From: a virus
Strand: one strand, 5' to 3'
IMG/VR virus record: IMGVR_UViG_3300021062_000001
Length of the DNA: 64,000 nt
The notes below the pieces were generated by a model. That model ran no database searches and was not told the DNA's origin. It worked only from the letters and a program-made list of their open reading frames with translations. Shown here in pieces: positions 8,758-62,427 of this stretch. The position numbers and the translations under genes were made by a program. How positions within the stretch are numbered: the stretch's first letter is position 1; each line of letters begins with the position of its first letter.

Positions 8758-9579
8758 GTGCCGTCTGCACCGATGCGAGACGACGACTGCCCGAACATCC
8801 TGGTGATCGTCCCGACCTACGGGGCGTTCGATTACGCACGCAAGACGCTCCAGTCCATGTTCGAGCACTCGAACAAGGAGCGGGTGGCCGCCGTGGTCGT
8901 CGACGACGGCAGCCCCGACTGGCACGACCAGTGGTACAAGGACGTGGGCGGCGGCTCGATCGGGATCATCAACTACTTGAACAACGGCGGGCTGACCAAG
9001 GCGTGGAACGTCGGGTTCCACTTCGCCTTCGACCAGTGCGCGGAGGCGGCGGACTTCGTCGTCGCCACGAACAGCGACGTGATCTTCACCGCCGGCTGGT
9101 GGCGGCCGATGGTCCACGCCCTCGAACACGGGTGGGACCTCGTCGGCCCGCTGTCCAACGCCCCGGGTGCCAGCTCCAAGGGCGTGCAGGACATCAAGCG
9201 GTGGGCGAGGGGCGTGGGCACCACCGACACGCGGACCTCGCTCGCCAACGTCCCCCGCATCGTCCAGAAGGCGTACGGCAACAACGTCGCCCCGTGCGAC
9301 GTCAACGGCTTCTTCATGATGGCGAAGAAGTCGACGTGGCTCGCCCACGCCCACGACGCCCCGCTGCACATGTTCCCGCCCTCGATCGACGTCATGCCCA
9401 GCGGCCGGCGGAACCCCACGCCCCTGATGACGGGGCAGGAGGACTGGCTCAACCACAGGATCAAGAAGGCGGGCGGCCGCACCGGGGCGTGCACCGGCTC
9501 GTACATCTTCCACTACCGCTCGGTCACCCGCGGCGAGCAACACGCGCAGGGGGACTGGCACAGGATGAAGGCAGGATGA
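8758..9579 (+). CDS. glycosyltransferase family 2-like (GT-A fold)
   Basis: ILVIVPTYGAFDYARKTLQS...VVVDDGSPD...ATNSDVIF matches the GT2 N-terminal pattern. Confidence 0.8.
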   Translation: MPSAPMRDDDCPNILVIVPTYGAFDYARKTLQSMFEHSNKERVAAVVVDDGSPDWHDQWYKDVGGGSIGIINYLNNGGLTKAWNVGFHFAFDQCAEAADFVVATNSDVIFTAGWWRPMVHALEHGWDLVGPLSNAPGASSKGVQDIKRWARGVGTTDTRTSLANVPRIVQKAYGNNVAPCDVNGFFMMAKKSTWLAHAHDAPLHMFPPSIDVMPSGRRNPTPLMTGQEDWLNHRIKKAGGRTGACTGSYIFHYRSVTRGEQHAQGDWHRMKAG

Positions 9580-9580
9580 G

Positions 9581-10282
9581 ATGCTCGTCGTGTACACCGC
9601 CATCATCGGCGGCAAAGGACCAGACCGGCTCCGGCCGCTGCCGGTAGCCCGCGACCCGATGGGCCGCCCGGTGAAGTACGTGTGCTTCACGGACGGCTTC
9701 AGCTTCAACTTCACCGACCCGCCCAACCCGCCCGGTGCCCCCGACTGGGAACTCCGCCTCCCGGCGTGGGAGCACGAGGACTCGCCCCGCCGCACCGCCC
9801 GCTGGCACAAGGTCATGGCCCACCAGGCCCTGGCCGCCGACGCCCCGCACTACAGCCTCTGGCTCGACGGGTCGCACCAGCTCGACGTCGAGCCGTGGTC
9901 GCTCGTCGACCGCTACCTCTCCAGGACGGCGGCGATCGCCACGTTCAAGCACTGCCAACGGGACTGCGTGTACGAGGAGGGCAAGGCGTGCGTACAGCTC
10001 CGCAAGGACGACCCGGCCGTGATCGCCCGGCAGCTCGACCGCTACCGCAAGGAAGGCGTGAAGCCGCACGCCGGGCTGTTCGAGACCAGCGTGTTCCTCC
10101 GCCGCCACCACCAACGGCCCGAGGTCGACCGGTTCAACGAACTGTGGTGGGCCGAGATGACGGCCGACAGCCTGAGGGACCAGCTCAGCGTGAACTACGC
10201 CGCGCGCAAGGTCGGGCTGCCGTACAACCACGTCGCCGGCACCAGGTACAAGAGCCCCTACTTCACCTTCTACCCCCACTGA
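9581..10282 (+). CDS. DUF616-type putative glycosyltransferase
   Basis: MLVVYTAIIGGKGPDRL...CFTD...ARWHKV...LWLDGS resembles the DUF616 (TOD1/MUCI70-like) pattern. Confidence 0.55.
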   Translation: MLVVYTAIIGGKGPDRLRPLPVARDPMGRPVKYVCFTDGFSFNFTDPPNPPGAPDWELRLPAWEHEDSPRRTARWHKVMAHQALAADAPHYSLWLDGSHQLDVEPWSLVDRYLSRTAAIATFKHCQRDCVYEEGKACVQLRKDDPAVIARQLDRYRKEGVKPHAGLFETSVFLRRHHQRPEVDRFNELWWAEMTADSLRDQLSVNYAARKVGLPYNHVAGTRYKSPYFTFYPH

Positions 10283-11431: not shown

Positions 11432-12703
11432 ATGTCCAACGACGCAGAACAACGCATGGCCGCCAGCACCGACGCCGCCGCCCGCAAGCCCGCCGCCGTG
11501 GCCGTCTCGGCCCCGCGGCCCCGCCCCGGGATCGCGAACGTGGCCGCCCAGGTCGCCAACGCAAACCGCTCGACCGCCACCAAGCCCCAGAAGATCGAGG
11601 ACGCGTTCGACCACGAGGTCGCGTTCCGCTTCGCCTTCCTCGGTGCCGGGCAGGGCGGCGGCCGGATCGCCAACGCGTTCTACGAGCTGGGCTACCGCCG
11701 GGTGGGCGTGTTCAACACGACCGACTCCGACTTCAACGGGCTGAACGAGGACATCGTCAAGCTGAACCTGAAGACGGGCGGGTCGGCCAAGGACACCGAG
11801 CTGGCCCGCCGCTCGCTCTCGGGCCGGGAAGAGGAGGTCCGCGACCTCCTGACCAAGGCGTGGGGCCAGGACGTCGACGTCGCCATGATCTCGGCCAGCC
11901 TCGGCGGCGGCACGGGCAGCGGCACGGCCCCCGAGCTGGTGAAGATCGCCCGCCAGTACCTCAAGGACCAGGGCAAGCCCGCCCGCGTCGGCGCGATCGT
12001 CAGCCTGCCCAACCGGGCCGAGGGCTTCCAGGTCTGCCGCAACGCCGTGAACGGGTTCAAGGCCCTGCAGGAGATGGGGGTCAGCCCGCTGATCGTCATC
12101 GACAACGCCCGGGTCGAACAGGTCTACCAGCCGTCGTTCACGAAGGTGTTCGCCACGGCCAACCAGACGGCCAGCACCTACCTGCACCTGTTCAACCAGC
12201 TCGCCGCCGTCCACTCCGAGTTCATCACGTTCGACAAGAGCGAGTTCGCCCAGCTGCTCGACAGCGGGCTCGTCGTGATGGGCACGAGCGACATCCAGCA
12301 GATCGACAGCCCGGCCGACATCAGCTCGGCCATCCGCGACCAGATCGCCGGCAGCGTGCTCGCCCAGGTCGACCTGACCACGGGCAACACGGCCGCCTGC
12401 CTGTTCGTCGGGTCGCAGGACGTGCTCGACCGCTTCACCACGGCGTACTTCGACGCCGGGTTCACCCAGCTCAACCGTACGCTCGCCACGAACAAGCCCG
12501 AGGGCACGCGGACCGTCGTGCACCGGGGCGTGTACCTCGGGGCCGACCCGGGGCTGCAGGCGTACGTCATGGTCGGCGGGCTCGCCCTGCCGTTCGCGTT
12601 GCTCGCCGATCTGGCCAAGGAGGGCGGTATCCCCGCCGGCGGGGGCGGCAACAGCCGTCTCGCCTCGTACCTGGGAGTGGAAGACGCACAGGCCCCGAAG
12701 TAG
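11432..12703 (+). CDS. tubulin/FtsZ-superfamily GTPase (PhuZ/TubZ-like)
   Basis: GAGQGGGRIANAF (T1-like), tubulin signature SLGGGTGSGTAPE (GGGTGSG), VIDNARV. Confidence 0.85.
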   Translation: MSNDAEQRMAASTDAAARKPAAVAVSAPRPRPGIANVAAQVANANRSTATKPQKIEDAFDHEVAFRFAFLGAGQGGGRIANAFYELGYRRVGVFNTTDSDFNGLNEDIVKLNLKTGGSAKDTELARRSLSGREEEVRDLLTKAWGQDVDVAMISASLGGGTGSGTAPELVKIARQYLKDQGKPARVGAIVSLPNRAEGFQVCRNAVNGFKALQEMGVSPLIVIDNARVEQVYQPSFTKVFATANQTASTYLHLFNQLAAVHSEFITFDKSEFAQLLDSGLVVMGTSDIQQIDSPADISSAIRDQIAGSVLAQVDLTTGNTAACLFVGSQDVLDRFTTAYFDAGFTQLNRTLATNKPEGTRTVVHRGVYLGADPGLQAYVMVGGLALPFALLADLAKEGGIPAGGGGNSRLASYLGVEDAQAPK

Positions 12704-15596: not shown

Positions 15597-15610
15597 TGTC
15601 AAGGATGACA
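15597..15610 (+). promoter_or_regulatory. leader hairpin with AAGGAU hexaloop (candidate CsrA site)
   Basis: UGUC-AAGGAU-GACA; second GGA in the SD at 15628-15630, 25 nt away. Confidence 0.4.
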
Positions 15611-31120: not shown

Positions 31121-31199
31121 CGCCGACGACGAGATGCGTAAGGTCGAGCAGGAGATGCGGGAGTTCTTCCGCGGGCAGAAGAAGCAAGGAGGCAAGTGA
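31017..31199 (+). CDS. small basic coiled-coil-like protein
   Basis: 60 aa; K/R/E-rich; GC3-rich. Confidence 0.55.
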   Translation: MGLARQHKLDELRRRFKMAAKRKRMAARDTSVYRNADDEMRKVEQEMREFFRGQKKQGGK

Positions 31200-31909
31200 T
31201 GGCCGGCGAGCTGACCGTCGTGATGCTGAACTGGATGCGGCCGGAGAACGTCCGCCGCTTCGTGCACTTCTACGCCATGCACGACGCCGTGGCCCAGGTG
31301 CTGGTGGGCGACAACAACCCGCACGCCGGCCCGAGGCCGCACAGCCTGAACCTGGCGAACCACCTGCCGCCCGACGCAGCCGAGAAGATCGTCGTGGCGT
31401 CGTTCAGCCAGGACGTCGGCCTGCCGTCGCGGTTCGCCCTGGCCGCCATGGCACGCACGGACCACGTCCTGATCTGCGACGACGACATCGACCTCCCCGA
31501 CGACACGGTCCGCCGGCTGCTCGCCGAGTTCCAGCGGAACAACGCCGGGGCCGTGGGCCTGCACGGCCGCAAGCCGGCGGAGGACGGGCGGTACACGATC
31601 GACAACCACTACGGCCCGGTGCCGATCCTGCTGACGCGGGCCGTCGTCACCACGCCCCGCGTCGCCGGCGAGGCGCTGTGGCAGAGCGTCCGCATGGCCC
31701 GAGCCCTCGGCGGCGTCCCGTTCGGCAACGGCGAGGACATCGTGATGAGCTACGTCGCGATGCGGCAGGCGGGCCGCCCGAACATCGCCGTGAGGCTGCC
31801 GTACAAGAACGTGGGGTTCAACGACGCCAACGCGATCAGCGTCCGCTACCCCAAGCACGAGGAGCACCGATCGAAAGTAGTTCAATGGTGCCGCGAGCAC
31901 GTTCTCTGA
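31199..31909 (+). CDS. GT64/exostosin-like GT-A glycosyltransferase
   Basis: TGATG overlap, AAGGAGG upstream; VVMLNWMRPEN, ICDDDIDLPDD (DxD), GNGEDIVMSY (compare NCEDI.MN of GT64). Confidence 0.6.
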   Translation: MAGELTVVMLNWMRPENVRRFVHFYAMHDAVAQVLVGDNNPHAGPRPHSLNLANHLPPDAAEKIVVASFSQDVGLPSRFALAAMARTDHVLICDDDIDLPDDTVRRLLAEFQRNNAGAVGLHGRKPAEDGRYTIDNHYGPVPILLTRAVVTTPRVAGEALWQSVRMARALGGVPFGNGEDIVMSYVAMRQAGRPNIAVRLPYKNVGFNDANAISVRYPKHEEHRSKVVQWCREHVL

Positions 31910-31915
31910 AGTTTC

Positions 31916-31944
31916 TTGACACGTCCCCCCATCGGGGGTAACTT
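31916..31944 (+). promoter_or_regulatory. sigma70-like promoter candidate with GC mini-hairpin spacer
   Basis: TTGACA-N17(cgtCCCCCcatcGGGGG)-TAACTT, immediately after the stop of the 31199 gene. Confidence 0.45.
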
Positions 31945-32212
31945 TCCTGACGCTGGACGGGCATGGACGTGGAACGGGGCCAGGGATGGCCACTGGGGAC
32001 AAGGATGTCACCACCGCGTCCGGCCGGTTCGGTGGGCGTTTTGACGGACGCCCTAAGAGCCGCAGAGGAGATGAGGTGTGCCGACGCAGCTCGACCCTGC
32101 GACGGGAGCCTCAACAAGAAACGGGGGCGGCCAGTGACTCCTTGGCCGCCCCTACATTGAAATCTTCCCTCCACAGCCCGACCGGCTCACCCACGCGGTC
32201 GGGCTTCTTTGT
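31945..32212 (+). ncRNA. candidate GGA-rich small RNA (possible CsrA/RsmA-titrating decoy)
   Basis: About 270 nt with low GC3 in all frames. 9 GGA. Hairpins with AGGGAU (31978-31991) and AAGGAU (31994-32013) hexaloops. ACAAGGATGT at 31999-32008. Ends at terminator 32176-32212. Confidence 0.4.
32176..32212 (+). terminator. intrinsic terminator
   Basis: Stem GCCCGACCG / CGGTCGGGC, 11-nt loop, then TTCTTTGT. Confidence 0.65.
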
Positions 32213-32277
32213 AACTGGAGGTTCTAACCCGCCCCGGCCCAGCCGGCACGGGGCATACTCGTAGCAAGGAGGCTCAG

Positions 32278-33939
32278 ATGCCTGACCTTCGCCCGCCGCC
32301 CGGTTCCGACCTGTCCAAGCTCCGCAACCTCAAGGACACGCGCGTCGTCCTGCAGCGCGGGGCGACCTACCAGGCCTCCAGCGACTGGGGGCTCAAACGC
32401 AACGTCGAGGTCGTGGCCGAGGGGACCGGCGGCCCACGCCCGCGGGTCGACTTCCTCGACAGCGGTGCCGGCGTCCACCTCCTCGGCGCGCAGAACATTG
32501 CCGTCTCCGACGTCGCCCTGATCTGCGTCCACCCCCAGCCGTCCTCGGGCGGCGTCCGCTCGGTCAGCTCGAAGGACGTCCGCCTCACCCGCGTCGAGGT
32601 CGCCGGCTTCCGCAACGGCATGACCAGCGAGGGCAAGCCCGGCGAGCGCAGCTCGAACTTCACGGTCGAGCAGTGCTACGTCCACAACAACTTCAACGCC
32701 AAGCCGCCTACCGGCAGCCCGCACGGCGGCGGCCACAGCCAGGGCATCTTCACGAGCTACACGGACGGCCTCCGGCTCCTCCGCACGGTCTGGGACACCA
32801 ACGGGTGGACGCCGGGCAAGGGGATCGCGACGCAGTTCAACCACAACGCCTACCTGAACGCCTCGTGCGGACCGGCCGAGGTGGTCGGCAACCTGTTCTA
32901 CAACGGGGCGGCGACCGGCCTGCAGCACCGGTGCGGCGGGCCGAACTCGTACAACCTGTTCCTCAACAACCCGATCGGCCTGACGTACGGCCTGGTCAAC
33001 GGCGGCGGCCCGCTGTGCCAGGGCGGCGTCAGCGGCGACGTGCACCACCTCGTGTTCGTCGGCGGCCGGGACATCAACGGCAGCCCGCGCGGCAACGCGA
33101 TGTCGTTCGCCAACTGCAAGCGGGTCCGCGTACGCGACGTGCTGATCGCCCACGCCCCGCAGGACAAGTTCCAGGCCGTTGCCCTCGAACGGTGCCGGAT
33201 GGGTGCCGACAGCGAGTACCTGAACAAGCCGGGCGGCATCGACATCGGGATCGCCGACCTGGAGTTCGACCGGGTCTACGTCTGGGACTGGCCCAAGGGC
33301 GAGTGGATTCAGTCGATCGGCGGCCAGGACGTGAAGCGGCTGGTCAAGCCGCAGAGCTGGGCTCCGCCGAAGCGGCCCGACCTCCGCGAGTGGATCGAGG
33401 AGCGGGGCGTGCTCGCCAACGCCCGGGCGAGCTACGCGACGTTCGACGCCAAGCCGCTGATCGACCAGATGTTCGCCCTCGCCGGCGCTGGCCAGGCCCC
33501 GACGCCCACGCCGACCCCGCCGCCCCCGCCCACCCCGCAGCCGACCCCGCCGAGCGAGCCGCGGCTCGACCTGATCGCGGTCAAGCTCGACGGCAAGCCG
33601 GTCGGCCGGCTGCAGGGCTCGTCGCTGCACTCCCCGGTCGCGGTCAAGGCCGTGCCCGTGCTGCCGGGCGGCCGGGGCATCGACCGCGTGCACTTCAGCC
33701 TCGACAAGCTCGGGGACGAGAAGCCGCCGCTGCTGGAGAAGGAGGAGCGGACCCCGCCCTACGCCTTCCCCGGCGACACGGGCGGCGACCGGTTCACCAA
33801 GTTCCCGTGGACCAGCGGGGCGTACCGCATGGTCGCCCGGGGGTACGCCGGGACCAAGGAGGTCGTCAAGCAGGTGGCGGAGTTCAGCGTCTGCACCGAC
33901 GAGGAGGTCGCGGCCGCGCTGGCGGCGAAGGACGACTAG
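32278..33939 (+). CDS. right-handed beta-helix protein (tailspike/polysaccharide depolymerase-like)
   Basis: Repeated beta-helix-type segments (VHNNFN, NHNAYLN, GNLFYNG, NLFLNNP); PTPTPTPPPPPTPQPTPP linker; C-terminal extra domain. Confidence 0.65.
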   Translation: MPDLRPPPGSDLSKLRNLKDTRVVLQRGATYQASSDWGLKRNVEVVAEGTGGPRPRVDFLDSGAGVHLLGAQNIAVSDVALICVHPQPSSGGVRSVSSKDVRLTRVEVAGFRNGMTSEGKPGERSSNFTVEQCYVHNNFNAKPPTGSPHGGGHSQGIFTSYTDGLRLLRTVWDTNGWTPGKGIATQFNHNAYLNASCGPAEVVGNLFYNGAATGLQHRCGGPNSYNLFLNNPIGLTYGLVNGGGPLCQGGVSGDVHHLVFVGGRDINGSPRGNAMSFANCKRVRVRDVLIAHAPQDKFQAVALERCRMGADSEYLNKPGGIDIGIADLEFDRVYVWDWPKGEWIQSIGGQDVKRLVKPQSWAPPKRPDLREWIEERGVLANARASYATFDAKPLIDQMFALAGAGQAPTPTPTPPPPPTPQPTPPSEPRLDLIAVKLDGKPVGRLQGSSLHSPVAVKAVPVLPGGRGIDRVHFSLDKLGDEKPPLLEKEERTPPYAFPGDTGGDRFTKFPWTSGAYRMVARGYAGTKEVVKQVAEFSVCTDEEVAAALAAKDD

Positions 33940-34435: not shown

Positions 34436-34513
34436 CGGCCGTCGCCCCGTAGCGGCGGCCCGCACCGCGTCCACGGACGGACGCACGAGACGACGTGACA
34501 AGGAGGTCACCCA

Positions 34514-40109: not shown

Positions 40110-40453
40110 GGTCGCGGTGGACGGGACACGCTTCGGCGGGGTATGCTAGTAGCAGGTAAGCCGTTGGCCGCGAGCGTCGGCCGGTAATGGACGGGTGGCG
40201 ATGCCAAGGATGGCGACACCACCCACGGAACGGCGTCATGGCGTGAAGGCCCGACGCCCGGTGGTGCGACGGAACGCTCAATTCGCCGTCGCAAACGGAG
40301 TCACGCTTAGCGGCGTGATACCACGGAGCCGGAAACCGACTCGGACGCGGCGGGCGAACCGCCGTGACAACCCCGAGGTGGCTGGGGAAACCGGCAGCGA
40401 GCTTACCGCAGTACAACGCACGGACGTACCCGTAGAGTCACGGAGGACTCGCC
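40110..40453 (+). ncRNA. GGA-rich structured non-coding region (candidate CsrA-titrating RNA or long CsrA-controlled leader of the 40454 gene)
   Basis: 344 nt with no credible ORF. 14 GGA, including six ACGGA. Long imperfect hairpin 40193-40224 capped by an AAGGAU hexaloop. 7-bp stem GCGACGG/CCGTCGC at 40266-40291. CGGCGG-GCGAA-CCGCCG at 40348-40364. Confidence 0.35.
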
Positions 40454-41544: not shown

Positions 41545-42095
41545 TCGAAGTGCTCGACGGCCCCGGCTACTGGGACAGGCAGGCGTACGCCCTCGGCAGG
41601 CTCAAGGCCGCCGAGGACGACACGCCGACGCCCTCCTACAGCATGTCCGGCCTCCTGTACGTCTCCGAGGCGTCGGGGCGGCCGTGGGCGTGCCTGTCCG
41701 TGCCGAACGCCCTGGTCCGTGGCATGTTCGACGCGCTGACCGAGCCGGGGATCGAGCTGCCGATGACGGACGGGAAGCTGAACGCGCACATCAGCGTCTT
41801 CCGGCCCGAAGAGATCGAGATGCTGGGCGGACCCGAGGCACTAAAAAACGACCGAGGGAAGCCCTTTCGGTACTCCCTCGGTCGTCTGGTCGAGTTGACC
41901 CCGGCGGCTTGGGCCGACATGGCCAAGTGCTGGGTGCTTAGGGTTCATTCGCCCGAGCTGCAACAGCTGCGTCGAAGCCATGGGCTCTCGGGGCTGCCGA
42001 AGGACGGCGAGTACGACTTCCACATCACGGTGGCTGTCAGGCGGAAGGGCGTACTCGGTCGCAACGACACCGCCAAGGCTACGGACGCGGCTTAG
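41541..42095 (+). CDS. 2H phosphoesterase superfamily protein (LigT/cyclic phosphodiesterase-like)
   Basis: Two HxT/S motifs: NAHISVF and DFHITVAV; ATGA overlap with the upstream gene. Confidence 0.6.
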   Translation: MIEVLDGPGYWDRQAYALGRLKAAEDDTPTPSYSMSGLLYVSEASGRPWACLSVPNALVRGMFDALTEPGIELPMTDGKLNAHISVFRPEEIEMLGGPEALKNDRGKPFRYSLGRLVELTPAAWADMAKCWVLRVHSPELQQLRRSHGLSGLPKDGEYDFHITVAVRRKGVLGRNDTAKATDAA

Positions 42096-42583
42096 CAGGC
42101 CAGGCTAGGGGCGAAAGGGGACGGGGCCGCCTGACGGTTCTCGCGGCGGATCGCCTCGTACACTTCCTTACGGTGGACCGGGACGTCGGCCGGGGCCACG
42201 AACCCGAGCCGGACCTTGTCGCCGCGGATGTCGACGACCGTGTACTCGCAGGCCGTGGGTACCTTGTACCCCTCGCCCCTGCCGGCCGCGACCGCGTCGG
42301 CGAACTTCTGCAGCTCCGCGGGCTCCACCAGCACGATCGACTCGTCCCGCTGGCGGGAGAGGACGAGGTTGCCCCCGCCCTTGCGCTCGCGGACCGGCGG
42401 CGGCTGGTTGCCCCGGGCGATGTCCTGTAGGATCTGGACGTAGAGTTCCTTGCGGTAGACCTGGTACTGCTCCGGGGCCTTGATGCCGGTACGGACCTTG
42501 TCGCCGCGGATGTCAACGACGGTGACCTCGACGTCATCGCCGATGAGCGTGGACTCGTCTCGTTGACGGGAGAGAACGAGCAT
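42092..42583 (-). CDS. csrA: tandem (two-domain, single-chain) CsrA/RsmA-family RNA-binding protein
   Basis: MLVLSRQRDESTLIGDDVEVTVVDIRGDKVRTGIKAPEQYQVYRKELY, then NLVLSRQRDESIVL...EYTVVDIRGDKVRLGFVAPADVPVHRKEVY; AAGGAG SD on the minus strand. Confidence 0.85.
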   Translation of the reverse strand: MLVLSRQRDESTLIGDDVEVTVVDIRGDKVRTGIKAPEQYQVYRKELYVQILQDIARGNQPPPVRERKGGGNLVLSRQRDESIVLVEPAELQKFADAVAAGRGEGYKVPTACEYTVVDIRGDKVRLGFVAPADVPVHRKEVYEAIRRENRQAAPSPFAPSLAC

Positions 42584-42619
42584 GATCGACTCCTTTCGAT
42601 GCAGGAAGAATCGGGAAAA

Positions 42620-42648
42620 TTGACTTCCTGACAGCCGGTAAAGATACT
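42620..42648 (+). promoter_or_regulatory. sigma70-like promoter candidate for the 42693 gene
   Basis: TTGACT-N17-GATACT in a locally AT-rich intergenic island. Confidence 0.5.
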
Positions 42649-42672
42649 ACCCCCGAACGGGGGACGACACAA
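42644..42672 (-). promoter_or_regulatory. sigma70-like promoter candidate for csrA, GC mini-hairpin spacer
   Basis: Minus strand reads TTGTGT-N17(cgtCCCCCgttcGGGGG)-TAGTAT; its -10 overlaps the + strand -10. Confidence 0.45.
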
Positions 42673-42692
42673 GCAACACTGGACACATTGCC

Positions 42693-52500: not shown

Positions 52501-55500
52501 ATGGGCCGCCTCGGATCTGGCATCAACATCATGGGGGATTCGGACCTCGGCATCATGGACGCGATGCCGGGGTTCGTCTCCGCGCCCATGCAGCTGCAGG
52601 CCCCGAAGCCCGTCGAGGAGGTCGAGGCCGAGCCCGAGGGGCTGCGGGCGTTCGGCGACGTGGACGCGACCCGCAAGGCGATCTACGACTCCGTGTTCGA
52701 GGCCGCCTCGAAGATGGAGCCGACGAAGAACCAGAAGCACACGCTCCGGCTGACCGGCGTGCAGTGGCAGGACCCGGACAAGTTCACGATCCGCCAGCGG
52801 AAGGAGGCCCTGCTGCGGGGCGAGACGCTCGGCCGCCGGCTCAAGGGCACCTGGGAGCTGCTCGACAACGCGACGAACCAGGTGATCGACCGCCGCGAGC
52901 AGACCGTGCTCCGCGTCCCGCACCTGACCGGGGGCGGCACGTTCGTCCACAACGGAAGCGACTACGCGCTGGGCAACCAGCAGCGGCTCCGCTCGGGCAT
53001 CTTCGCCCGCGTGAAGGACAACGGCGAGTACGAGTCGCACGTCAACGTGCTGGAGGGCGGCCCCTCGCACAAGATCCAGCTGAACCCGGAGAAGGGCGTC
53101 TTCTACGTCAACATCGGGCAGGCGAACATCCCGCTGCTGCCGCTGCTGCAGACGCTCGGGGCGAGCGAGAAGGACCTCCGCGCGGCGTGGGGCGACGACC
53201 TGTACGCCCGGAACTACCAGAAGGCGGACGGGACGGCGATGGCGAAGATCGTCGCCAAGTTCCTGAAGAAGCCGCCGGTCGACGGCACGAGCACGGCCGA
53301 CGCCCTCCGCCAGACGTTCGAGAACATGCGGCTCGACCCCGAGGTCACCAAGCGGACGCTCGGCCAGCCGTACGACCGCCTGGGCAAGGACGCGCTGGTC
53401 GCCGCGACCGCCAAGCTCCTGCGGGTCCACCGCAAGGAGGAGGAGCCGGACGACCGCGACCACCTCGCGTACCAGACGTTCCTCGGCCCCGAGGACCTGT
53501 TCGCCGAGCGGCTCCGCAAGGACCGCGCCGGCGTCCGCCGCAACATGCTCTTCAAGATCAGCGGCAAGGGCAGCCTGCGGGCGATGGGCTCCAGCCCGCT
53601 GCAGGACCAGATCGACTCGGCGATCATGTCGTCGGGGCTCGGCCAGGCCCTCGAAGAGATCAACCCGGCGGAGATCCTCGACAAGAACACGAAGATCAGC
53701 CGGATGGGCGAGGGCGGCATCCCGAGCTACGACGCGGTCCCCGACGAGGCCCGCGCCGTGCAGCCGTCGCACTTCGGGTTCATGGACCCGCTCCGCACCC
53801 CGGAGAGCTTCAAGGCCGGCGTGGACGTGTTCCTGAGCGGCAACGTCCGCAAGGGCCGCGACGGGAAGCTGTACGGCCGGTTCGTCGACGCCCGCACCGG
53901 CAAGCCGGCGTGGAAGACGCCGCAGGAGGTCGCGGACGCCGTCGTCACGTTCCCGGGGGCCGACAAGCTCCCGTACAAGCGCATCCCCGCGATGAAGAAC
54001 GGGCGGATGGGCTGGGCGACCCGCGAGGAGGTCGGCCTGGTGCTGCCGACGATGGAGCACGCGTTCAGCCCGATCGACAACCTGATCCCGCTCAAGAGCC
54101 AGCTCAAGGGCCAGCGGGCCAGCATGGCGAGCCGGATGACCACCCAGGCCCTGCCGCTGGTCGGCGCTGAGGCCCCGCTGGTGCAGAGCGGCCTGCCCGG
54201 CTCCAAGGGCGAGCGGAGCTACGAGGAGGAGTACGCGAAGCACATGGGGGCCGTCGTCGCCGACCGCGGCGGCAAGGTCCTGGCCGTGACGCCGGACGCG
54301 ATGACGGTGAAGTACGACGACGGCAAGGTCGACACGATCGAGCTGTACAACAACTTCCCCTACAACCGCAAGACGGGCATCACGCAGACGCCGACCGTCA
54401 AGCCCGGCCAGCGGTTCGAGGCCAAGCAGCCGATCGCCCGGTCGAACTTCACGGACGACAAGGGGGCCGCCGCGCTGGGGCTCAACGCCCGCGTCGCGTA
54501 CATGCCGTGGGGCGGCCAGAACTTCGAGGACGCGATCGTCATCAGCGAGGGCATGGCCAAGCGGATGACGTCCGAGCACATGTACCAGAACGGGCTGGAG
54601 GTGAACGACCGCACGAAGGTCGGCCGCAAGGAGTTCATCTCGCTCTTCCCGTCGAAGTACGACAAGGCCACGCTGGCGAAGCTCGACGATAAGGGCCTCA
54701 TCAAGCCCGGCACCCAGGTCCACTTCGGCGACCCGCTGATCCTCGCCGCCGAGGAGCGGAGCACGGCCCAGAACAAGATCCACAAGAAGGGCACGCCCGC
54801 GTTCAACGACGTGTCCGTCACCTGGGACCACCACGACCCCGGCATCGTCACCGACGTCGTCGAGGGCAAGAACGGCCCGGTCGTCCTGGTGAAGAGCCAG
54901 CACCCGATGCAGGTCGGCGACAAGATGAGCGGGCGGTACGGCGACAAGGGCGTCGTCAGCGCGATCATCCCGGACGACCAGATGCCGCACGACAAGGACG
55001 GCAAGCCGTTCGAGGTGCTGCTGAACGACCTGGGCGTCATCAGCCGGACGAACCCGAGCCAGTGGGCCGAGGCCAAGCTCGGGGCGATCGCCGCCAAGCT
55101 GGGCAAGGCGATGAAGGTCGAGGACTTCGACCCGGCGGTCGAGGACCGCGCGGCGTGGGTCGAGGAGCAGATGCGGAAGCACGGCATCCCCGACCAGGAG
55201 GACGTGACCGACCCGGTGCGGGGGACGAAGATCCCGGGCATCTCGACCGGCAACCGCTTCTTCATGAAGCTCCACCACACGGCCGAGTCCAAGGGGCAGG
55301 GCCGCGGGTCGGGCGCGTACGCCTCGGACGACACGCCGGCCAAGGGCGGCGAGACGGGCAGCAAGCGGAACTCGCTGCTGAACGTGAACGCCCTGCTCTC
55401 GCACGGGGCGACCGACTACCTGCAGGACGTCGGGGCGATCAGCGGCCAGCGGAACGAGGACTACTGGCTCCAGTTCATGCAGGGGTTCTCGCCCCGCAAG

Positions 55501-57006
55501 CCGAAGGTCCCGCTCGTGTACGAGAAGTTCGTCAACGAGCTGAAGGGGGCCGGGATCAACGTCGTCCGCGAGGGCAGCCAGCTCCACGTCATGGCGCTGA
55601 CGGACAAGGACGTCGACCACCTGGCCGGCGACCGCGAGATCGAGGTCGGCGACACGGTCGACTTCTACAACGAGCTGAAGCCCGTGAAGGGCGGCCTGTT
55701 CGACAAGACGAAGACCGGCGGCCACCACGGCAACCGGTGGGCGGCGATCAAGCTCGCGGAGCCGATGCCGAACCCGGTCATGGAGGAGCCGATCCGCCGC
55801 GTGCTCGGGCTGACGCAGAAGCGGTTCGAGGACGTGATCGCCGGCCGCGAGCCGCTGAACCCGCAGACCGGGGCGACCGGCCCGCGGGCGATCGCCGAGG
55901 CCCTGAAGACGATGAACGTCGACCGGGAGATCGCGATCGCCCGGGCGAAGATCCAGAACGGCACGAAGGCCGAGCGGGACATGGCCGTGCGGAAGCTCGG
56001 CTACCTCAAGAGCGCGAAGAAGACGGGCGTCCTGCCGGGCGACTGGGTGCTGAACCGCGCCCCGGTCCTGCCGCCGCAGTTCCGCCCCGTGAACGTGATG
56101 GGCGGGAAGAACGTACCGCTCGTCGCGGACGCGAACTTCCTCTACAAGGAGCTGTTCGAGGCGAACAAGAACCTCCGCGACATGAGCGAGCAGGTGGGCG
56201 ACGACGTCGGCGACGAGCGGCTGGCGGTGTACCACGCGTTCAAGGCGGTCACGGGCCTCGGCGAGCCGATCACGCAGAAGAGCCAGGAGAAACAGGTCAA
56301 GGGAATCCTAAAATCGGTTTTTGGATCTTCGCCGAAGTTCGGCACCGTGCAGCGGAAGCTGATCGGCTCCACGGTCGACAACGTCGGCCGGGGCGTCGTC
56401 GTCCCGAACCCGGACCTCGACATGGACAGCGTCGGGCTCCCGGAGGACCGGGCGTTCGACGTCTACAGCCGGTTCGTCGTCCGCCGCCTCCGCCGCTCGG
56501 GCATGCCGATGGCCCAGGCCCTGCGGCACGTCAAGGACAAGAGCCCGCTGGCCCGGAAAGTGCTGGTCGAGGAGATGGACCACCGGCCGGTGGTCGTCAA
56601 CCGCGCCCCGGTGCTCCACCGGTTCGGCATCATGGCGTTCCGCCCCAAGCTCGTGAAGGGCTCGGTGCTGCACGTCCCGCCGCTGATCGTGAAGGGCTTC
56701 GGCATGGACTTCGACGGCGACGCGGTGCAGTACCACGTCCCGACGAGCGAGGACGCCCGGGCCGAGGCCCTCGACCGGATGCTGCCCAGCCGGCAGCTGC
56801 TGAGCCCCGGCGACTTCAAAAGCCCCGTGCACGTCCCGGGGCAGGAGTACGTCGGCGGGCTGTACAAGGCGACGAGCGGCCGCAGCAAGCGGCCGGTCCG
56901 CTACTTCCGCAGCGCCAAGGACGTCCGCCACGCCTGGGAGCACGGTGAGGTCGCGATCGACGACGTCATCAAGGTCCTGGGCGACGCGGTCGCGGCGAAG
57001 CGGTAG
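52501..57006 (+). CDS. multisubunit RNA polymerase: beta-like subunit fused to the N-terminal (RpoC1-like) half of beta'
   Basis: Beta motifs: RAVQPSHFGFMDPLRTPES, GQNFEDAIVISE, GDKMSGRYGDKGVVS, FFMKLHHTAESK. Beta' motifs: NRAPVLHRFGIMAF and catalytic MDFDGDAVQYHVP. Confidence 0.9.
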   Translation: MGRLGSGINIMGDSDLGIMDAMPGFVSAPMQLQAPKPVEEVEAEPEGLRAFGDVDATRKAIYDSVFEAASKMEPTKNQKHTLRLTGVQWQDPDKFTIRQRKEALLRGETLGRRLKGTWELLDNATNQVIDRREQTVLRVPHLTGGGTFVHNGSDYALGNQQRLRSGIFARVKDNGEYESHVNVLEGGPSHKIQLNPEKGVFYVNIGQANIPLLPLLQTLGASEKDLRAAWGDDLYARNYQKADGTAMAKIVAKFLKKPPVDGTSTADALRQTFENMRLDPEVTKRTLGQPYDRLGKDALVAATAKLLRVHRKEEEPDDRDHLAYQTFLGPEDLFAERLRKDRAGVRRNMLFKISGKGSLRAMGSSPLQDQIDSAIMSSGLGQALEEINPAEILDKNTKISRMGEGGIPSYDAVPDEARAVQPSHFGFMDPLRTPESFKAGVDVFLSGNVRKGRDGKLYGRFVDARTGKPAWKTPQEVADAVVTFPGADKLPYKRIPAMKNGRMGWATREEVGLVLPTMEHAFSPIDNLIPLKSQLKGQRASMASRMTTQALPLVGAEAPLVQSGLPGSKGERSYEEEYAKHMGAVVADRGGKVLAVTPDAMTVKYDDGKVDTIELYNNFPYNRKTGITQTPTVKPGQRFEAKQPIARSNFTDDKGAAALGLNARVAYMPWGGQNFEDAIVISEGMAKRMTSEHMYQNGLEVNDRTKVGRKEFISLFPSKYDKATLAKLDDKGLIKPGTQVHFGDPLILAAEERSTAQNKIHKKGTPAFNDVSVTWDHHDPGIVTDVVEGKNGPVVLVKSQHPMQVGDKMSGRYGDKGVVSAIIPDDQMPHDKDGKPFEVLLNDLGVISRTNPSQWAEAKLGAIAAKLGKAMKVEDFDPAVEDRAAWVEEQMRKHGIPDQEDVTDPVRGTKIPGISTGNRFFMKLHHTAESKGQGRGSGAYASDDTPAKGGETGSKRNSLLNVNALLSHGATDYLQDVGAISGQRNEDYWLQFMQGFSPRKPKVPLVYEKFVNELKGAGINVVREGSQLHVMALTDKDVDHLAGDREIEVGDTVDFYNELKPVKGGLFDKTKTGGHHGNRWAAIKLAEPMPNPVMEEPIRRVLGLTQKRFEDVIAGREPLNPQTGATGPRAIAEALKTMNVDREIAIARAKIQNGTKAERDMAVRKLGYLKSAKKTGVLPGDWVLNRAPVLPPQFRPVNVMGGKNVPLVADANFLYKELFEANKNLRDMSEQVGDDVGDERLAVYHAFKAVTGLGEPITQKSQEKQVKGILKSVFGSSPKFGTVQRKLIGSTVDNVGRGVVVPNPDLDMDSVGLPEDRAFDVYSRFVVRRLRRSGMPMAQALRHVKDKSPLARKVLVEEMDHRPVVVNRAPVLHRFGIMAFRPKLVKGSVLHVPPLIVKGFGMDFDGDAVQYHVPTSEDARAEALDRMLPSRQLLSPGDFKSPVHVPGQEYVGGLYKATSGRSKRPVRYFRSAKDVRHAWEHGEVAIDDVIKVLGDAVAAKR
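56304..56328 (+). promoter_or_regulatory. palindromic box copy 11, variant, inside the RNAP ORF (AATCCTAAAATCGGTTTTTGGATCT)
   Basis: AT-rich island in a GC-rich gene; nearly identical to copy 3; encodes ILKSVFGSS. Confidence 0.45.
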
Positions 57007-59670: not shown

Positions 59671-62427
59671 GTGCAAACGACGGTCGGCCAACTCCTCGTC
59701 AACGAGCACCTGCCCGAGGACCTGCGGAACCACGACCGCGTCCTCGACAAGAAGGGCATCAACGCGCTCCTCCGCGACGTCGCCCAGCGGCACCCCGAGA
59801 AGTACCGCGAGATCTCCCACGCCCTCTCGACGATCGGCTGGCGGGCCGCCCAGGAGACGGGCGGCTACAGCTTCGGCATGCAGCACCTCCGCCCGGCGAA
59901 GGCCGCCCTGGCCCTGCGGGCGAAGCTCCGCGAGCAGATGCGGCAGGTGCTCGACGACGACAACCTCGACGACAAGACCCGCGAGGACCGCATCACCCGG
60001 CTGGCCGGCGCGCTCCAGAAGCAGCAGCAGGAGGATGTGTTCAACGAGAGCCTGGCCGAGAAGAACCCGCTCGCCTACCAAGTGCTCTCCGGCTCCCGCG
60101 GCAACAAGATGAACCTCGCGAGCCTGCGGGGCTCGGACATGCTGTACGCCGACCACCGGGACAACGTGATCCCGGTGCCGGTCCTGTCGAGCTACAGCGA
60201 GGGGCTGAAGCCGTGGGAGTATTGGGCCGGGACGTACGGTGCCCGCAAGGGTGTCATGGACGTGAAGTTCGCGACGCAGGACGCCGGCTTCCTGTCCAAG
60301 CAGCTGAACCAGGTCACGCACCGGCTCGTGGTCGAGGCCCTCGACCGCGACGGCGACGGCGAGCCGGACGCCCCGCCCCGCGGGCTCCCGGTCGACACGG
60401 ACGACATGGACAACGAGGGCTCGCTCCTCGCCCACGACGTCGGCCCGTACAAGCGGAACACGGTGCTGACCCCGAAGATCCTGTCGCACCTCCGGCAGAT
60501 CGGGCAGAAGCGCATCCTCGTGCGGAGCCCGGCCGTGGGCGGCACCCCGAACGGCGGCGTGTACGCCCGCGACGTCGGCGTCCGCGAGCACGGCACGCTC
60601 CCCGGCCGGGGCGAGATGCCCGGCCTCGCCGCCGTGCAGGCGCTGTCCGAGCCGCTGACGCAGGCCCAGATCTCCTCCAAGCACACGGGCGGCGTCGCCG
60701 GCGAGGGCAAGGCGATCTCCGGCTTCGAGTACGTCAACCAGCTCGTGCAGGTGCCGAAGAAGATGAAGGGCGGGGCGGCCCACTCCGACGAGGACGGCGT
60801 CGTCGGGCGGATCATCCCCGCCCCGGCCGGCGGCAACTACGTCTACGTGAACGGCAAGGAGCACTACGTCCCCGAGGGCGTCGAGCTGAAGGTCAAGCCG
60901 GGCGACCAGGTCGAGGCGGGCGACGTGCTGACCGCCGGCCTGCCGAACCCGTCCAAGATCGTCGAGCACAAGGGCATCGGCGAGGGCCGGCGGTACTTCG
61001 TCAAGGCGTTCCGGGAGGCGATGGGCGGGGCGAACATGACCGCCAACCGCCGGAACATCGAGCTGCTGTCGCGGGGGCTCATCAACCACGTCCGGCTGAC
61101 GGACGAGGTGGGCGAGCACGCGCCGGACGACCTCGTGCCCTACCACCTGGTCGAGAGCCGGTACCAGCCCCGCGACGACGCCGCCGAGGTCGAGCCGACG
61201 CTGGCCGGCAACCAGTACCTCGAACAGCCCGTGCTGCACTACACGGTCGGCACCCGCGTCCGCCCGAGCGTGATGCGGGACCTGCAGGAGTTCGGCGTGA
61301 AGAAGGTCCGCGTCCACCGCGACCCGCCGCCGTTCAAGGCCGAGATGGTCCGCGGCATGACCAGCCTGGCGAACGACCCGGACTGGATGACACGGATGTA
61401 CGGCTCGGGGCTCAAGGGCGGGCTGCTGAAGGCGGTCCACCGGGGCGGCACGAGCGACGAGGCGGGCACGAGCTTCGTCCCGAGCCTGGCCAAGGCCGTC
61501 GACTTCGGCCGCACGCCCGGCGGCATCGTCCGCAAGCCGTCGCCCGGGTGGGCACCCGAGCCGCCCGCCGCGATCAAGGTCGGCAGCTCCCCCGGCGTCC
61601 CGGGCGGACCGGCCGCCGGCGACGCCCCCGGCGCGCCGGGCGGGATCGGCTCGCCCCCGGGCGGGCTCGCCCCGCCGAAGCTCGCGCCGGCACCCGCCGC
61701 TCCGAAGCCCGCAGCGCCGGCCCCGCCGCCGGCGGCGACGCCCGCCCCCGCGCCGGCACCGGTGAAGCAGTACATGCCCGACACGGCCGCCCCGGAGCCA
61801 CAGGCCCCGCTGTGGTTCGGCGGGTACCAGCCGCAGCGCGGGTTCAACCAGCAGGCGGCGACCGCCCTGATGCCGTACGCCCAACACCTGGGGCCGCTCG
61901 CCCCGCTGGCGGTCATGGCCGGCGTCGACTTCAAGGCCCTCGGCACGCTGACCGGGCAGAAGGACTGGACGCACGGCACCGACTACACGCAGGGCCTTAG
62001 GACGCCGCAGACGCCCGCACCCGCCCTCCCGGCCCCTCCGACGCCCCCGGCGGCTCCTGCGACGCCCCAGGCCCCTCCGGCGGCCCCTGCGGTCCCGCCC
62101 CAGCAGCCGCCGGCACCCGTCCAGCCGCCGCCGGCCGCCCAACAACCGGGCTCAGCCGCTCCGAAGCCGCCTCTGCAGTTCAAGAGCGAGGCCGAGTTCT
62201 TCGCCCACCCGCCGGTGCAGACCGCGCTGCAGGGCTTCCGGGGCAAGCTGTTCAGCCAGGTGACGCCGCAGGGCTTCCACTGGGCAGGCGAGATCGCCGG
62301 CATGCCGCAGATGCAGCAGGCGGTGAAGTGGGAGCTGGAGCAGTACGTGCACCACCAGGACCCGGCCCGCCTGCAGGCCGGGCTCGACGCCGTGTACCAA
62401 GTCGTGATGAAGGCGAGGCAGCCATAA
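59671..62427 (+). CDS. multisubunit RNA polymerase beta' C-terminal (RpoC2-like) half with ~280-aa Pro/Ala-rich C-terminal extension
   Basis: Starts at the conserved TTVGQLLVNEHLP; trigger-loop region GLAAVQALSEPLTQAQISSKHTGGVAG; tail from about residue 630 is P/A-rich. Confidence 0.85.
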   Translation: MQTTVGQLLVNEHLPEDLRNHDRVLDKKGINALLRDVAQRHPEKYREISHALSTIGWRAAQETGGYSFGMQHLRPAKAALALRAKLREQMRQVLDDDNLDDKTREDRITRLAGALQKQQQEDVFNESLAEKNPLAYQVLSGSRGNKMNLASLRGSDMLYADHRDNVIPVPVLSSYSEGLKPWEYWAGTYGARKGVMDVKFATQDAGFLSKQLNQVTHRLVVEALDRDGDGEPDAPPRGLPVDTDDMDNEGSLLAHDVGPYKRNTVLTPKILSHLRQIGQKRILVRSPAVGGTPNGGVYARDVGVREHGTLPGRGEMPGLAAVQALSEPLTQAQISSKHTGGVAGEGKAISGFEYVNQLVQVPKKMKGGAAHSDEDGVVGRIIPAPAGGNYVYVNGKEHYVPEGVELKVKPGDQVEAGDVLTAGLPNPSKIVEHKGIGEGRRYFVKAFREAMGGANMTANRRNIELLSRGLINHVRLTDEVGEHAPDDLVPYHLVESRYQPRDDAAEVEPTLAGNQYLEQPVLHYTVGTRVRPSVMRDLQEFGVKKVRVHRDPPPFKAEMVRGMTSLANDPDWMTRMYGSGLKGGLLKAVHRGGTSDEAGTSFVPSLAKAVDFGRTPGGIVRKPSPGWAPEPPAAIKVGSSPGVPGGPAAGDAPGAPGGIGSPPGGLAPPKLAPAPAAPKPAAPAPPPAATPAPAPAPVKQYMPDTAAPEPQAPLWFGGYQPQRGFNQQAATALMPYAQHLGPLAPLAVMAGVDFKALGTLTGQKDWTHGTDYTQGLRTPQTPAPALPAPPTPPAAPATPQAPPAAPAVPPQQPPAPVQPPPAAQQPGSAAPKPPLQFKSEAEFFAHPPVQTALQGFRGKLFSQVTPQGFHWAGEIAGMPQMQQAVKWELEQYVHHQDPARLQAGLDAVYQVVMKARQP

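Follow-up and report, generated by a model that had tools for sequence, protein, structure and literature searches.

The translation regulator CsrA and the RNAs that it binds provide the closest described counterparts of the element treated here. CsrA bridges sites that lie 10-63 nt apart, a distance of about 18 nt between sites having been reported as optimal, and its sponge CsrB contains 22 GGA sequences (PMC7652899). At pgaA of Escherichia coli, CsrA acts through termination of transcription within the leader, a Rho-dependent process (PMC7652899). TwoAYGGAY RNA (RF01731) possesses two AYGGAY terminal loops that have been proposed to bind one CsrA dimer (PMC4333381; PMC2864571). Homologs of csrA are present in about 1% of phage genomes, PTXU04_00028 being an example, and the knock-down of one phage csrA shrinks plaques (PMC7366521; PMC11879866). 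In the literature we came across no phage RNA described as the partner of a phage-borne CsrA. Such a partner may be encoded by the virus record IMGVR_UViG_3300021062_000001, of which a stretch of 64,000 nucleotides, hereafter called the window, was analysed. The element in question occupies a 368-nt gap (31910-32277) with a GT64-like glycosyltransferase gene (31199-31909) on its 5' side and, on its 3' side, the gene of a right-handed β-helix protein of 553 residues (32278-33939, + strand). An earlier note on this DNA had interpreted the gap as a candidate CsrB/RsmZ-like decoy RNA. We favour, at somewhat less than even confidence, the reading that it is a CsrA-responsive leader or attenuator RNA of the β-helix operon, co-regulated with a tandem csrA gene of the same virus.

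The gap contains a real, non-coding and conserved unit with the anatomy of a promoter and a terminator. It opens with a σ70-type promoter (31916-31944) whose -35 hexamer TTGACA (31916-31921) is followed after a spacer of 17 nt by the -10 hexamer TAACTT (31939-31944); transcription would start at about 31950-31952. In both the minimum-free-energy (MFE) and the centroid structure, the 5' domain of the RNA (31950-32033) consists of an imperfect outer stem, formed by 31950-31972 with 32013-32033, around two GGA hairpins. Hairpin 1 (31975-31995) exposes the GGA at 31984 in the loop of GGCC-AGGGAU-GGCC (31978-31991), and hairpin 2 (31996-32012, core 31998-32009) exposes that at 32003 in the predicted fold GAC-AAGGAU-GUC. 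According to the partition function both GGAs are unpaired with a probability of 1.0, and their spacing is 19 nt. Hairpin 2, within which ACAAGGAUGU occupies 31999-32008, fits the archetype obtained by SELEX, a hexaloop closed by AC/GU (PMC7652899). The earlier note had called it a near-consensus CsrA site with 10 of the 12 positions of RUACARGGAUGU; GGACAAGGAUGU matches 11 of them. A further hairpin, D (32034-32053), is formed by GGGCG-UUUUGACGGA-CGCCC. The GGA at 32046 can pair weakly with the U run and is paired in the MFE fold, so that of the three GGAs earlier placed in loops, those of hairpins 1 and 2 are confirmed and this one is not.

Two more hairpins follow downstream. The first, a GC hairpin of 12 bp and -25 kcal/mol (32123-32152), had been described as a 10-bp hairpin at 32124-32152 and is followed by UACAUUGAAAUCUU. 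The second is an intrinsic terminator (32175-32212; hairpin 32175-32205) with the 10-bp stem AGCCCGACCG/CGGUCGGGCU, an 11-nt loop and the tail UCUUUGU. Only four strong terminator-like hairpins were found on the + strand of the 64 kb, this one included, and all four are intergenic. The + strand of the gap folds better than its shuffles (z = -4.4). On the - strand the hairpin at 32124-32152 has a loop with AAGGAGUCAC, and CGUUUCUUG comes after it; it could therefore act bidirectionally, although no - strand gene lies nearby. The anatomy outlined in the earlier note, with TTGACA-N17-TAACTT at the start of the gap and a good intrinsic terminator closing it, was recovered at these positions.

The unit has counterparts in two related phage contigs. 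Among 5.8 billion proteins the β-helix protein has one full-length relative, P0002, which is 58% identical and encoded on contig L010; contig L043 was found by a GT64 search and its GT64 protein is 65% identical. In L010 only 95 nt separate the GT64 gene from the β-helix gene, and they contain, in this order, the promoter, CACAAGGAUGG, GGCC-AGGGAU-GGCC, the Shine-Dalgarno sequence and ATG. The resulting leader of 66 nt has no terminator and runs into the Shine-Dalgarno sequence of the orthologous β-helix gene. Relative to the window the two GGA hairpins have changed places, and their GGAs are 19 nt apart in both phages. The gap of L043 measures 261 nt and contains eight GGAs, ACAAGGAUGU and a strong terminator, GGCGGCUGCC...GGCAGCCGCC-UUUUCAUUU, with its end 20 nt 5' of the ATG of a distant β-helix homolog. 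The hairpin at 32123-32152 of the window aligns with this terminator and is its positional homolog. In every phage that has the element, a β-helix gene is its 3' neighbour.

What is conserved in the element is the promoter, a palindrome within it and the GGA motifs; the remaining sequence is not. The 17-mer CGGGGCCAGGGATGGCC, at hairpin 1, is exact between the window and L010, a match reached by none of 500 shuffles. ACAAGGATG is the sole 9-mer found in all three phage transcripts, and this 9-mer, ACAAGGAUG, corresponds to the core of RUACARGGAUGU, the consensus that SELEX gave for CsrA (PMC7652899). In the orthologous leaders ACAAGGATG is thus conserved in 3/3, GGCCAGGGATGGCC in 2/3 and TTGACGGACGC in 2/3, the last being common to the window and L043 (p = 0.026). 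To this extent the blocks with the loop GGAs, whose absence from related genomes would have spoken against the earlier note, are retained in the relatives. The L043 counterpart of hairpin D, GUCGUG-UUGACGGA-CGCGAC, keeps the loop block TTGACGGACGC, and its arms differ yet are complementary; the loop lengths differ between the window and L043, and the pairs are out of register in the alignment. The outer stem of the 5' domain, whose 5' arm holds three GGAs in the predicted fold, was not seen in the folds of L010 or L043. The element is absent from the more distant GT64-carrying contigs L011, L044, L045 and L047. A blastn search of the region against the phage collection yielded no match, and scans of IMG/VR with the GT64 protein, two hairpin/promoter DNA patterns and a csrA-leader pattern yielded no relative of the element; a scan of IMG/VR with the tandem CsrA protein recovered only the distant CsrA-carrying phages L001-L007.

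The promoter links the element to the regulator. The virus encodes, as had been noted, a tandem csrA (42092-42583, - strand), a single-chain double CsrA of 163 residues that matches Pfam CsrA in two stretches (2.9e-35). In an alignment of twelve tandem CsrAs, both repeats retain the N-terminal LVLSR strand and the arginine of HR(K)E, which is consistent with two intact RNA-binding faces. The spacer of the gap promoter contains the palindrome CCCCC-N4-GGGGG (31925-31938), and the spacers of the gap promoter, cgtccccccatcggggg, and the csrA promoter, cgtcccccgttcggggg, are identical at 15 of 17 positions, the same count as in the earlier note. The window has just two instances of the extended form CGTCCCCC-N4-GGGGGTA, one in each of these promoters; in L010, of which 21.6 kb were covered, the palindrome is likewise confined to the β-helix locus and csrA. 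The orthologous promoters of the element are TTGACT-CCCCCgaacGGGGG-tt-TACGCT in L010 and TTGACA-cagCCCCCgaacGGGGG-TAGGGT in L043, so that the three phages share TTGACA/TTGACT, 16-17 nt and TAnnnT with CCCCC-N4-GGGGG in the spacer. Since the same rare GC palindrome lies in both promoters, the gap RNA and the tandem csrA are probably switched together. The palindrome resembles an operator common to the csrA promoter and the leader promoter at 31916, and genes of the GerE/LuxR type and response-regulator-like genes of the phage close to csrA are candidates for encoding its binding protein. Its interpretation as a terminator hairpin of the upstream gene was rejected, as csrA has no co-directional upstream gene and conserved -35 and -10 hexamers flank the hairpin. 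A GacA/UvrY box, TGTAAG-N6-CTTACA, was not found near the element within 3 mismatches.

The csrA promoter and leader (42585-42676, - strand) have a similar organization. TTGCTT/TTGTGT, the spacer cgtCCCCCgttcGGGGG and TAGTAT (42649-42644) precede a leader with GGAAGUCAA and a Shine-Dalgarno hairpin, AUCGA-AAGGAG-UCGAU (42585-42600). Orthologs of the tandem csrA are present in L010, L011 and L041; L043, a short contig, is uninformative on this point. The promoter sites lie at 42644-42676 (- strand) in the window, 20520-20560 in L010, where the spacer is CCCCCgatcGGGGGG, 7220-7255 in L041 and 9470-9500 in L011, with the consensus TTGCTT, 17 nt, TAGTAT/TAGCAT/TATAGT. Promoter and leader are conserved in L010 and L041; the palindrome is present in the csrA promoters of the window, L010 and L041 and degenerate in that of L011. 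The leader motifs GGAAGUCAA ... AUCGAAAGGAGUCGAU are kept in all four phages, which suggests that csrA is autoregulated. In L011, an open reading frame (ORF) of 152 residues (9549-10007) that is rich in Cys and His, possibly a homing endonuclease, lies between the conserved csrA leader with its Shine-Dalgarno sequence and csrA. Tandem CsrAs are not specific to phages: versions of 192 residues (L014, 10001-10579) and 169 residues (L042, 5972-6481) occur in bacterial chromosomal contexts, between uvrB and uvrA and after ribosomal protein genes. Those of the phage clade have an extra insertion of up to about 23 residues in repeat 2.

In the model that we favour, the RNA would be transcribed from the palindrome-bearing σ70-type promoter and switched with csrA. 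The AGGGAU and AAGGAU hexaloops near its 5' end, 19 nt apart, would offer the geometry for one CsrA dimer to clamp two sites, the clamp presumably being one tandem CsrA polypeptide or the CsrA of the host. A cis-acting leader is proposed because the element always lies directly 5' of the β-helix gene and because L010 has only a 66-nt leader with upstream sites and a Shine-Dalgarno sequence. In L010 the hairpins are about 30 nt from the Shine-Dalgarno sequence, an arrangement that would be classical for a message whose translation CsrA represses. For the window and L043, the model predicts that most transcripts end at the terminator(s), giving an RNA of about 260 nt, and that expression of the operon relies on read-through, since neither room nor signal for a σ70-type promoter exists beyond the terminator. 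In L043 the 20 nt between terminator and ATG leave no room for another promoter. In the window, no σ70-like promoter was found between 32213 and 32277, and a candidate second promoter at 32222-32259 (GGGGCATACT) was rejected because its start would land within the Shine-Dalgarno sequence. As a cis-acting target of CsrA, the leader would couple expression of the β-helix operon to the CsrA level, and each molecule of the terminated by-product could titrate about one CsrA clamp. That the RNA is transcribed and bound by CsrA, and in which direction it regulates, is deduced here from the sequence.

The layout agrees in several respects with that of the CsrA-regulated leaders of E. coli glgC, cstA and pgaA and of Bacillus subtilis hag, which likewise have loop GGA sites upstream of or at the Shine-Dalgarno sequence and two sites within bridging distance (PMC7652899). 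It differs from them in that a virus encodes both the element and its partner, a single-chain double CsrA, and in that a promoter palindrome is common to the element and the regulator's own gene. Unlike pgaA, which uses Rho, the window and L043 have an intrinsic terminator between the sites and the gene. We know of no intrinsic-terminator version of CsrA leader control.

Several observations weigh against a CsrA-responsive leader. In the window, 265 nt that include one terminator lie between the hairpins and the Shine-Dalgarno sequence, a distance beyond the reach of direct dual-site bridging, and no antiterminator emerged as a convincing alternative to the terminators; a pairing of 32024-32037 with the terminator arm was discarded as too weak and unconserved. 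The element is known from three genomes only, with minimal covariation, the stem of hairpin 1 being invariant rather than covarying. The predicted folds differ among the three RNAs, and ACAAGGAUGU of L043 lies outside a hairpin loop in the MFE structure. Finally, as the main uncertainty, the phage has its own multisubunit RNA polymerase, and promoters that escape recognition could drive the β-helix gene independently. With an independent downstream promoter, the unit would be a free-standing small RNA.

The latter possibility leads to the first alternative, a dedicated trans-acting decoy RNA of about 260 nt that sequesters the CsrA of the phage or the host and thereby relieves the repression of mRNAs. 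We regard it as unlikely, yet it shares much of the evidence with the leader model. The window and L043 have a promoter and a terminator without an ORF, the promoter palindrome is shared with csrA, and two hairpins of the SELEX type with the highest affinity stand at the optimal spacing. Many mRNAs of the virus also bear Shine-Dalgarno hairpins of the CsrA type, which would have to be protected or released at the right time. The Csr/Rsm sponges CsrB, CsrC and RsmX/Y/Z resemble the element in being non-coding, in having a promoter-like site and a terminator of their own (as in the window and L043), in their ANGGA hexaloops of the preferred type and in the presence of regulator and RNA in one genome. 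The likeness ends with the number of sites. The element displays two, perhaps three, as compared with the 22 GGA sequences of CsrB (PMC7652899), has no GacA/UvrY box nearby and is fixed directly 5' of one gene; in L010, where the terminator is missing, it is simply an mRNA leader.

Nor does the GGA content set the element apart from its composition. All nine GGAs listed in the earlier note (31955, 31965, 31971, 31984, 31997, 32003, 32046, 32067 and 32105) were located exactly, but the approximately two-fold overall enrichment estimated there was not borne out: two dinucleotide-shuffle tests gave expectations of 9.3 (p = 0.64) and 8.4 (p = 0.47), and the count belongs only to the top 12% of genome windows. 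The higher enrichment claimed for 31955-32070 was partly upheld. This 116-nt core contains 8 GGAs as compared with 2.1 in the genome, which places it in the top 0.3% of windows and favours a decoy; against shuffles, which contain 5.0, the excess is marginal (p about 0.05). According to the partition function, just two GGAs (31984 and 32003) lie unpaired in a hairpin loop, the remaining seven of the nine being mostly in stems. Dinucleotide shuffles evaluated by their MFE structures contain 0.48 loop GGAs, from which the observed 2 do not differ significantly (p = 0.08). At gathering score, Rfam contains nothing relevant for the whole window, and covariance models of the Csr/Rsm clan and of TwoAYGGAY gave no match at E <= 10 to segments of 801 nt and 116 nt. 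The element is therefore not a member of the Csr/Rsm families or of TwoAYGGAY. By architecture TwoAYGGAY is the nearest described RNA, with two adjacent A-N-GGA-Y hexaloop hairpins and an optional outer stem; it differs in that the loops of the element, AGGGAU and AAGGAU, are ARGGAU with a purine at position 2 rather than AYGGAY, and in that TwoAYGGAY RNA is known neither from phages nor as a leader. Of the decoy interpretation there remain the non-coding unit, the tandem CsrA, the common palindrome and the two conserved SELEX-type hairpins, whereas the small number of sites, the lack of a GGA excess and of a family-model match and the leader layout of L010 speak against it.

The hexaloops of the gap are not isolated features of the genome. 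Hairpins with a stem and an A-N-GGA-N hexaloop number 53 on the coding strand of the window as opposed to 6 on the other strand. About half of the 53 place the Shine-Dalgarno sequence GGAG in the loop, 5-11 nt before the start codon, csrA included; the loops are closed by stems of 3-7 bp (examples at 34500, 40440, 49941 and 57011). The Shine-Dalgarno sequence of the β-helix gene is likewise contained in a hexaloop hairpin, AGC-AAGGAG-GCU, followed by the ATG at 32278 (32263-32280). Of the ANGGAN motifs before start codons, 37% are flanked by a stem of 3 bp or more, compared with 5-8% in register-shift controls. In several genes another GGA hairpin lies 20-27 nt upstream of the Shine-Dalgarno hairpin. 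The variant ANGGAU, which fits a SELEX-type CsrA site and is poor as a Shine-Dalgarno sequence, forms a hexaloop hairpin in six of seven intergenic occurrences and in none of six coding ones. The six lie at 15601, 31982, 32001, 34998, 40206 and 42693, two of them being hairpins 1 and 2. The enrichment of hexaloops was observed in the window, L041, L043, L010 and L044 and is absent from the bacterial contigs with a tandem CsrA (L014, L042) and from unrelated CsrA-carrying phages. The gap element looks like an unusual instance of a clade-wide design apparently made for a CsrA-type clamp. The 344-nt gap 5' of an operon that ends beside csrA (40110-40453) contains 14 GGAs and no TCC, with 9.2 GGAs expected from shuffles (p = 0.027), and includes a Shine-Dalgarno hairpin as well as the hairpin UGCC-AAGGAU-GGCG; L041 has a long GGA-rich leader that is homologous to it (9668-9968). 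Judged by the number of its GGAs, this region is a better sponge-like candidate than the gap element, with only one GGA in a predicted loop.

The same design can be explained without CsrA, an alternative to which we assign a low probability. The gap RNA would then be a CsrA-independent leader, and the GGA hexaloops would belong to a general design of the clade for translation or mRNA stability, as Shine-Dalgarno-like standby sites held single-stranded in GC-rich RNA, or be read by another RNA-binding protein or nuclease of the phage. The GGAG hexaloops at starts are pervasive and clade-specific, and the bacterial contigs L014 and L042 have a tandem CsrA without the design, from which it follows that CsrA alone does not impose it. 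The leader hairpins, however, contain GGAU instead of GGAG, with a poorer match to the anti-Shine-Dalgarno sequence and an exact match to the SELEX consensus of CsrA, and they are not followed by a start codon. Moreover, all members of the clade whose region was seen have a tandem csrA, the leader of which bears the same motifs.

Two-hairpin units of this kind also occur outside the phages. A genome-wide scan detected the pair GGCCAGGGAUGGCC ... ACAAGGAUG in 20 stretches of 14 genome assemblies, most of them gammaproteobacterial. They form a repeat family (L021-L040; for example L028 7340-7470, L037 5540-5640 and L035 1-240) in Alcanivorax, Marinobacter, Sedimenticola, Pseudoxanthomonas and Microbulbifer, in which a hairpin with an 8-bp stem and an AGGGAU loop accompanies xAC-AAGGAU-GUx. 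Many copies lie inside long inverted repeats whose outer stem pairs covary; some genomes contain several copies, and some copies are arranged in tandem arrays with a period of 53. None of the 20 stretches has an Rfam match at gathering score; the gammaproteobacterial tandem array of L035 matches TwoAYGGAY weakly (17 bits, E = 7). On a 7-kb bacterial metagenome contig (L019, 3290-3420), GGCC-AGGGAU-GGCC, 11 nt, GCAC-AAGGAU-GUGC and a GC-rich hairpin follow each other in an intergenic region, possibly as a small CsrA-binding RNA. The two-hairpin unit thus recurs widely. It is conceivable that a mobile or repeated unit landed in the leader as a passenger without a role of its own, in keeping with its inverted repeats, multiple copies and tandem arrays elsewhere. 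We consider this very unlikely: each phage genome stretch examined holds a single copy, this copy occupies an orthologous site without a conserved long inverted repeat at its flanks, and two phages with no more than 58-63% identity between their flanking proteins have retained the 19-nt spacing.

The weakest alternative, a small protein-coding gene in ORF 31963-32160 or 31986-32264, has two open frames of 65 and 92 codons in its favour and is dismissed as extremely improbable, given a G+C content at the third codon position (GC3) of 0.65-0.69 as opposed to 0.96 in real genes, the lack of a properly spaced Shine-Dalgarno sequence and the lack of conservation of the frames in L010 and L043, where the conserved TTGACGGACGC block falls in different frames. 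The claims of the earlier note on this point were accurate. The G+C content of the gap is about 0.65 compared with 0.70 for the window, GC3 amounts to 0.63-0.69 in three ORFs of the gap and to 0.96-0.97 in the flanking genes, and a reading of the sequences of L010 and L043 showed no gap ORF to be conserved. The coding interpretation was rejected on GC3.

The DNA of the window matches a 224-kb metagenomic contig (ENA ERZ27257313 k141_2268), has a G+C content of about 70% and carries nearly all of its genes on the + strand. It encodes a tubulin/PhuZ-like protein (11432-12703), pieces of a split multisubunit RNA polymerase (52501-57006 and 59671-62427), a ribonucleotide reductase and a topoisomerase-like protein, a gene set that makes it reasonable to regard the window as part of a large (jumbo) phage and the element as virus-encoded. 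PhuZ-like tubulin and a split RNA polymerase in a genome of 70% G+C may indicate a jumbo phage of the nucleus-forming type with a planctomycete-like host. The closest single-domain CsrA proteins, labelled Phycisphaeraceae or Planctomycetota, are about 65-79% identical to repeat-length parts of the phage CsrA, and a partial β-helix homolog stems from an uncultured Phycisphaerae bacterium; judged by these homologs, the host is probably a planctomycete.

Beyond the leader itself, the data invite a broader and more speculative proposal, to which we attach little confidence: the clade of jumbo phages with tubulin and RNA polymerase would run a Csr-like circuit in which a double CsrA, hexaloop Shine-Dalgarno sequences and one or more CsrA-titrating or CsrA-sensing RNAs time the translation of phage genes. 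The RNA part would be the gap RNA and perhaps also the GGA-rich leader at 40110-40453. The documented phage CsrAs differ in being single-domain proteins without a cognate phage RNA partner or a phage-wide design of binding sites. If true, the circuit would be the first virus-encoded pair of a Csr-type regulator and an antagonist RNA. For the csrA genes known from phages, neither RNA partners nor targets are known; the csrA of the present phage is accompanied by a conserved RNA with a putative two-site clamp, a common promoter operator and a genome-wide design at ribosome-binding sites that resembles CsrA-binding sites. If these links are real, they would provide a testable model of how a large phage controls its translation programme by a CsrA-type protein, and an example of CsrA action by way of a leader with an intrinsic terminator or of a minimal decoy with one clamp.

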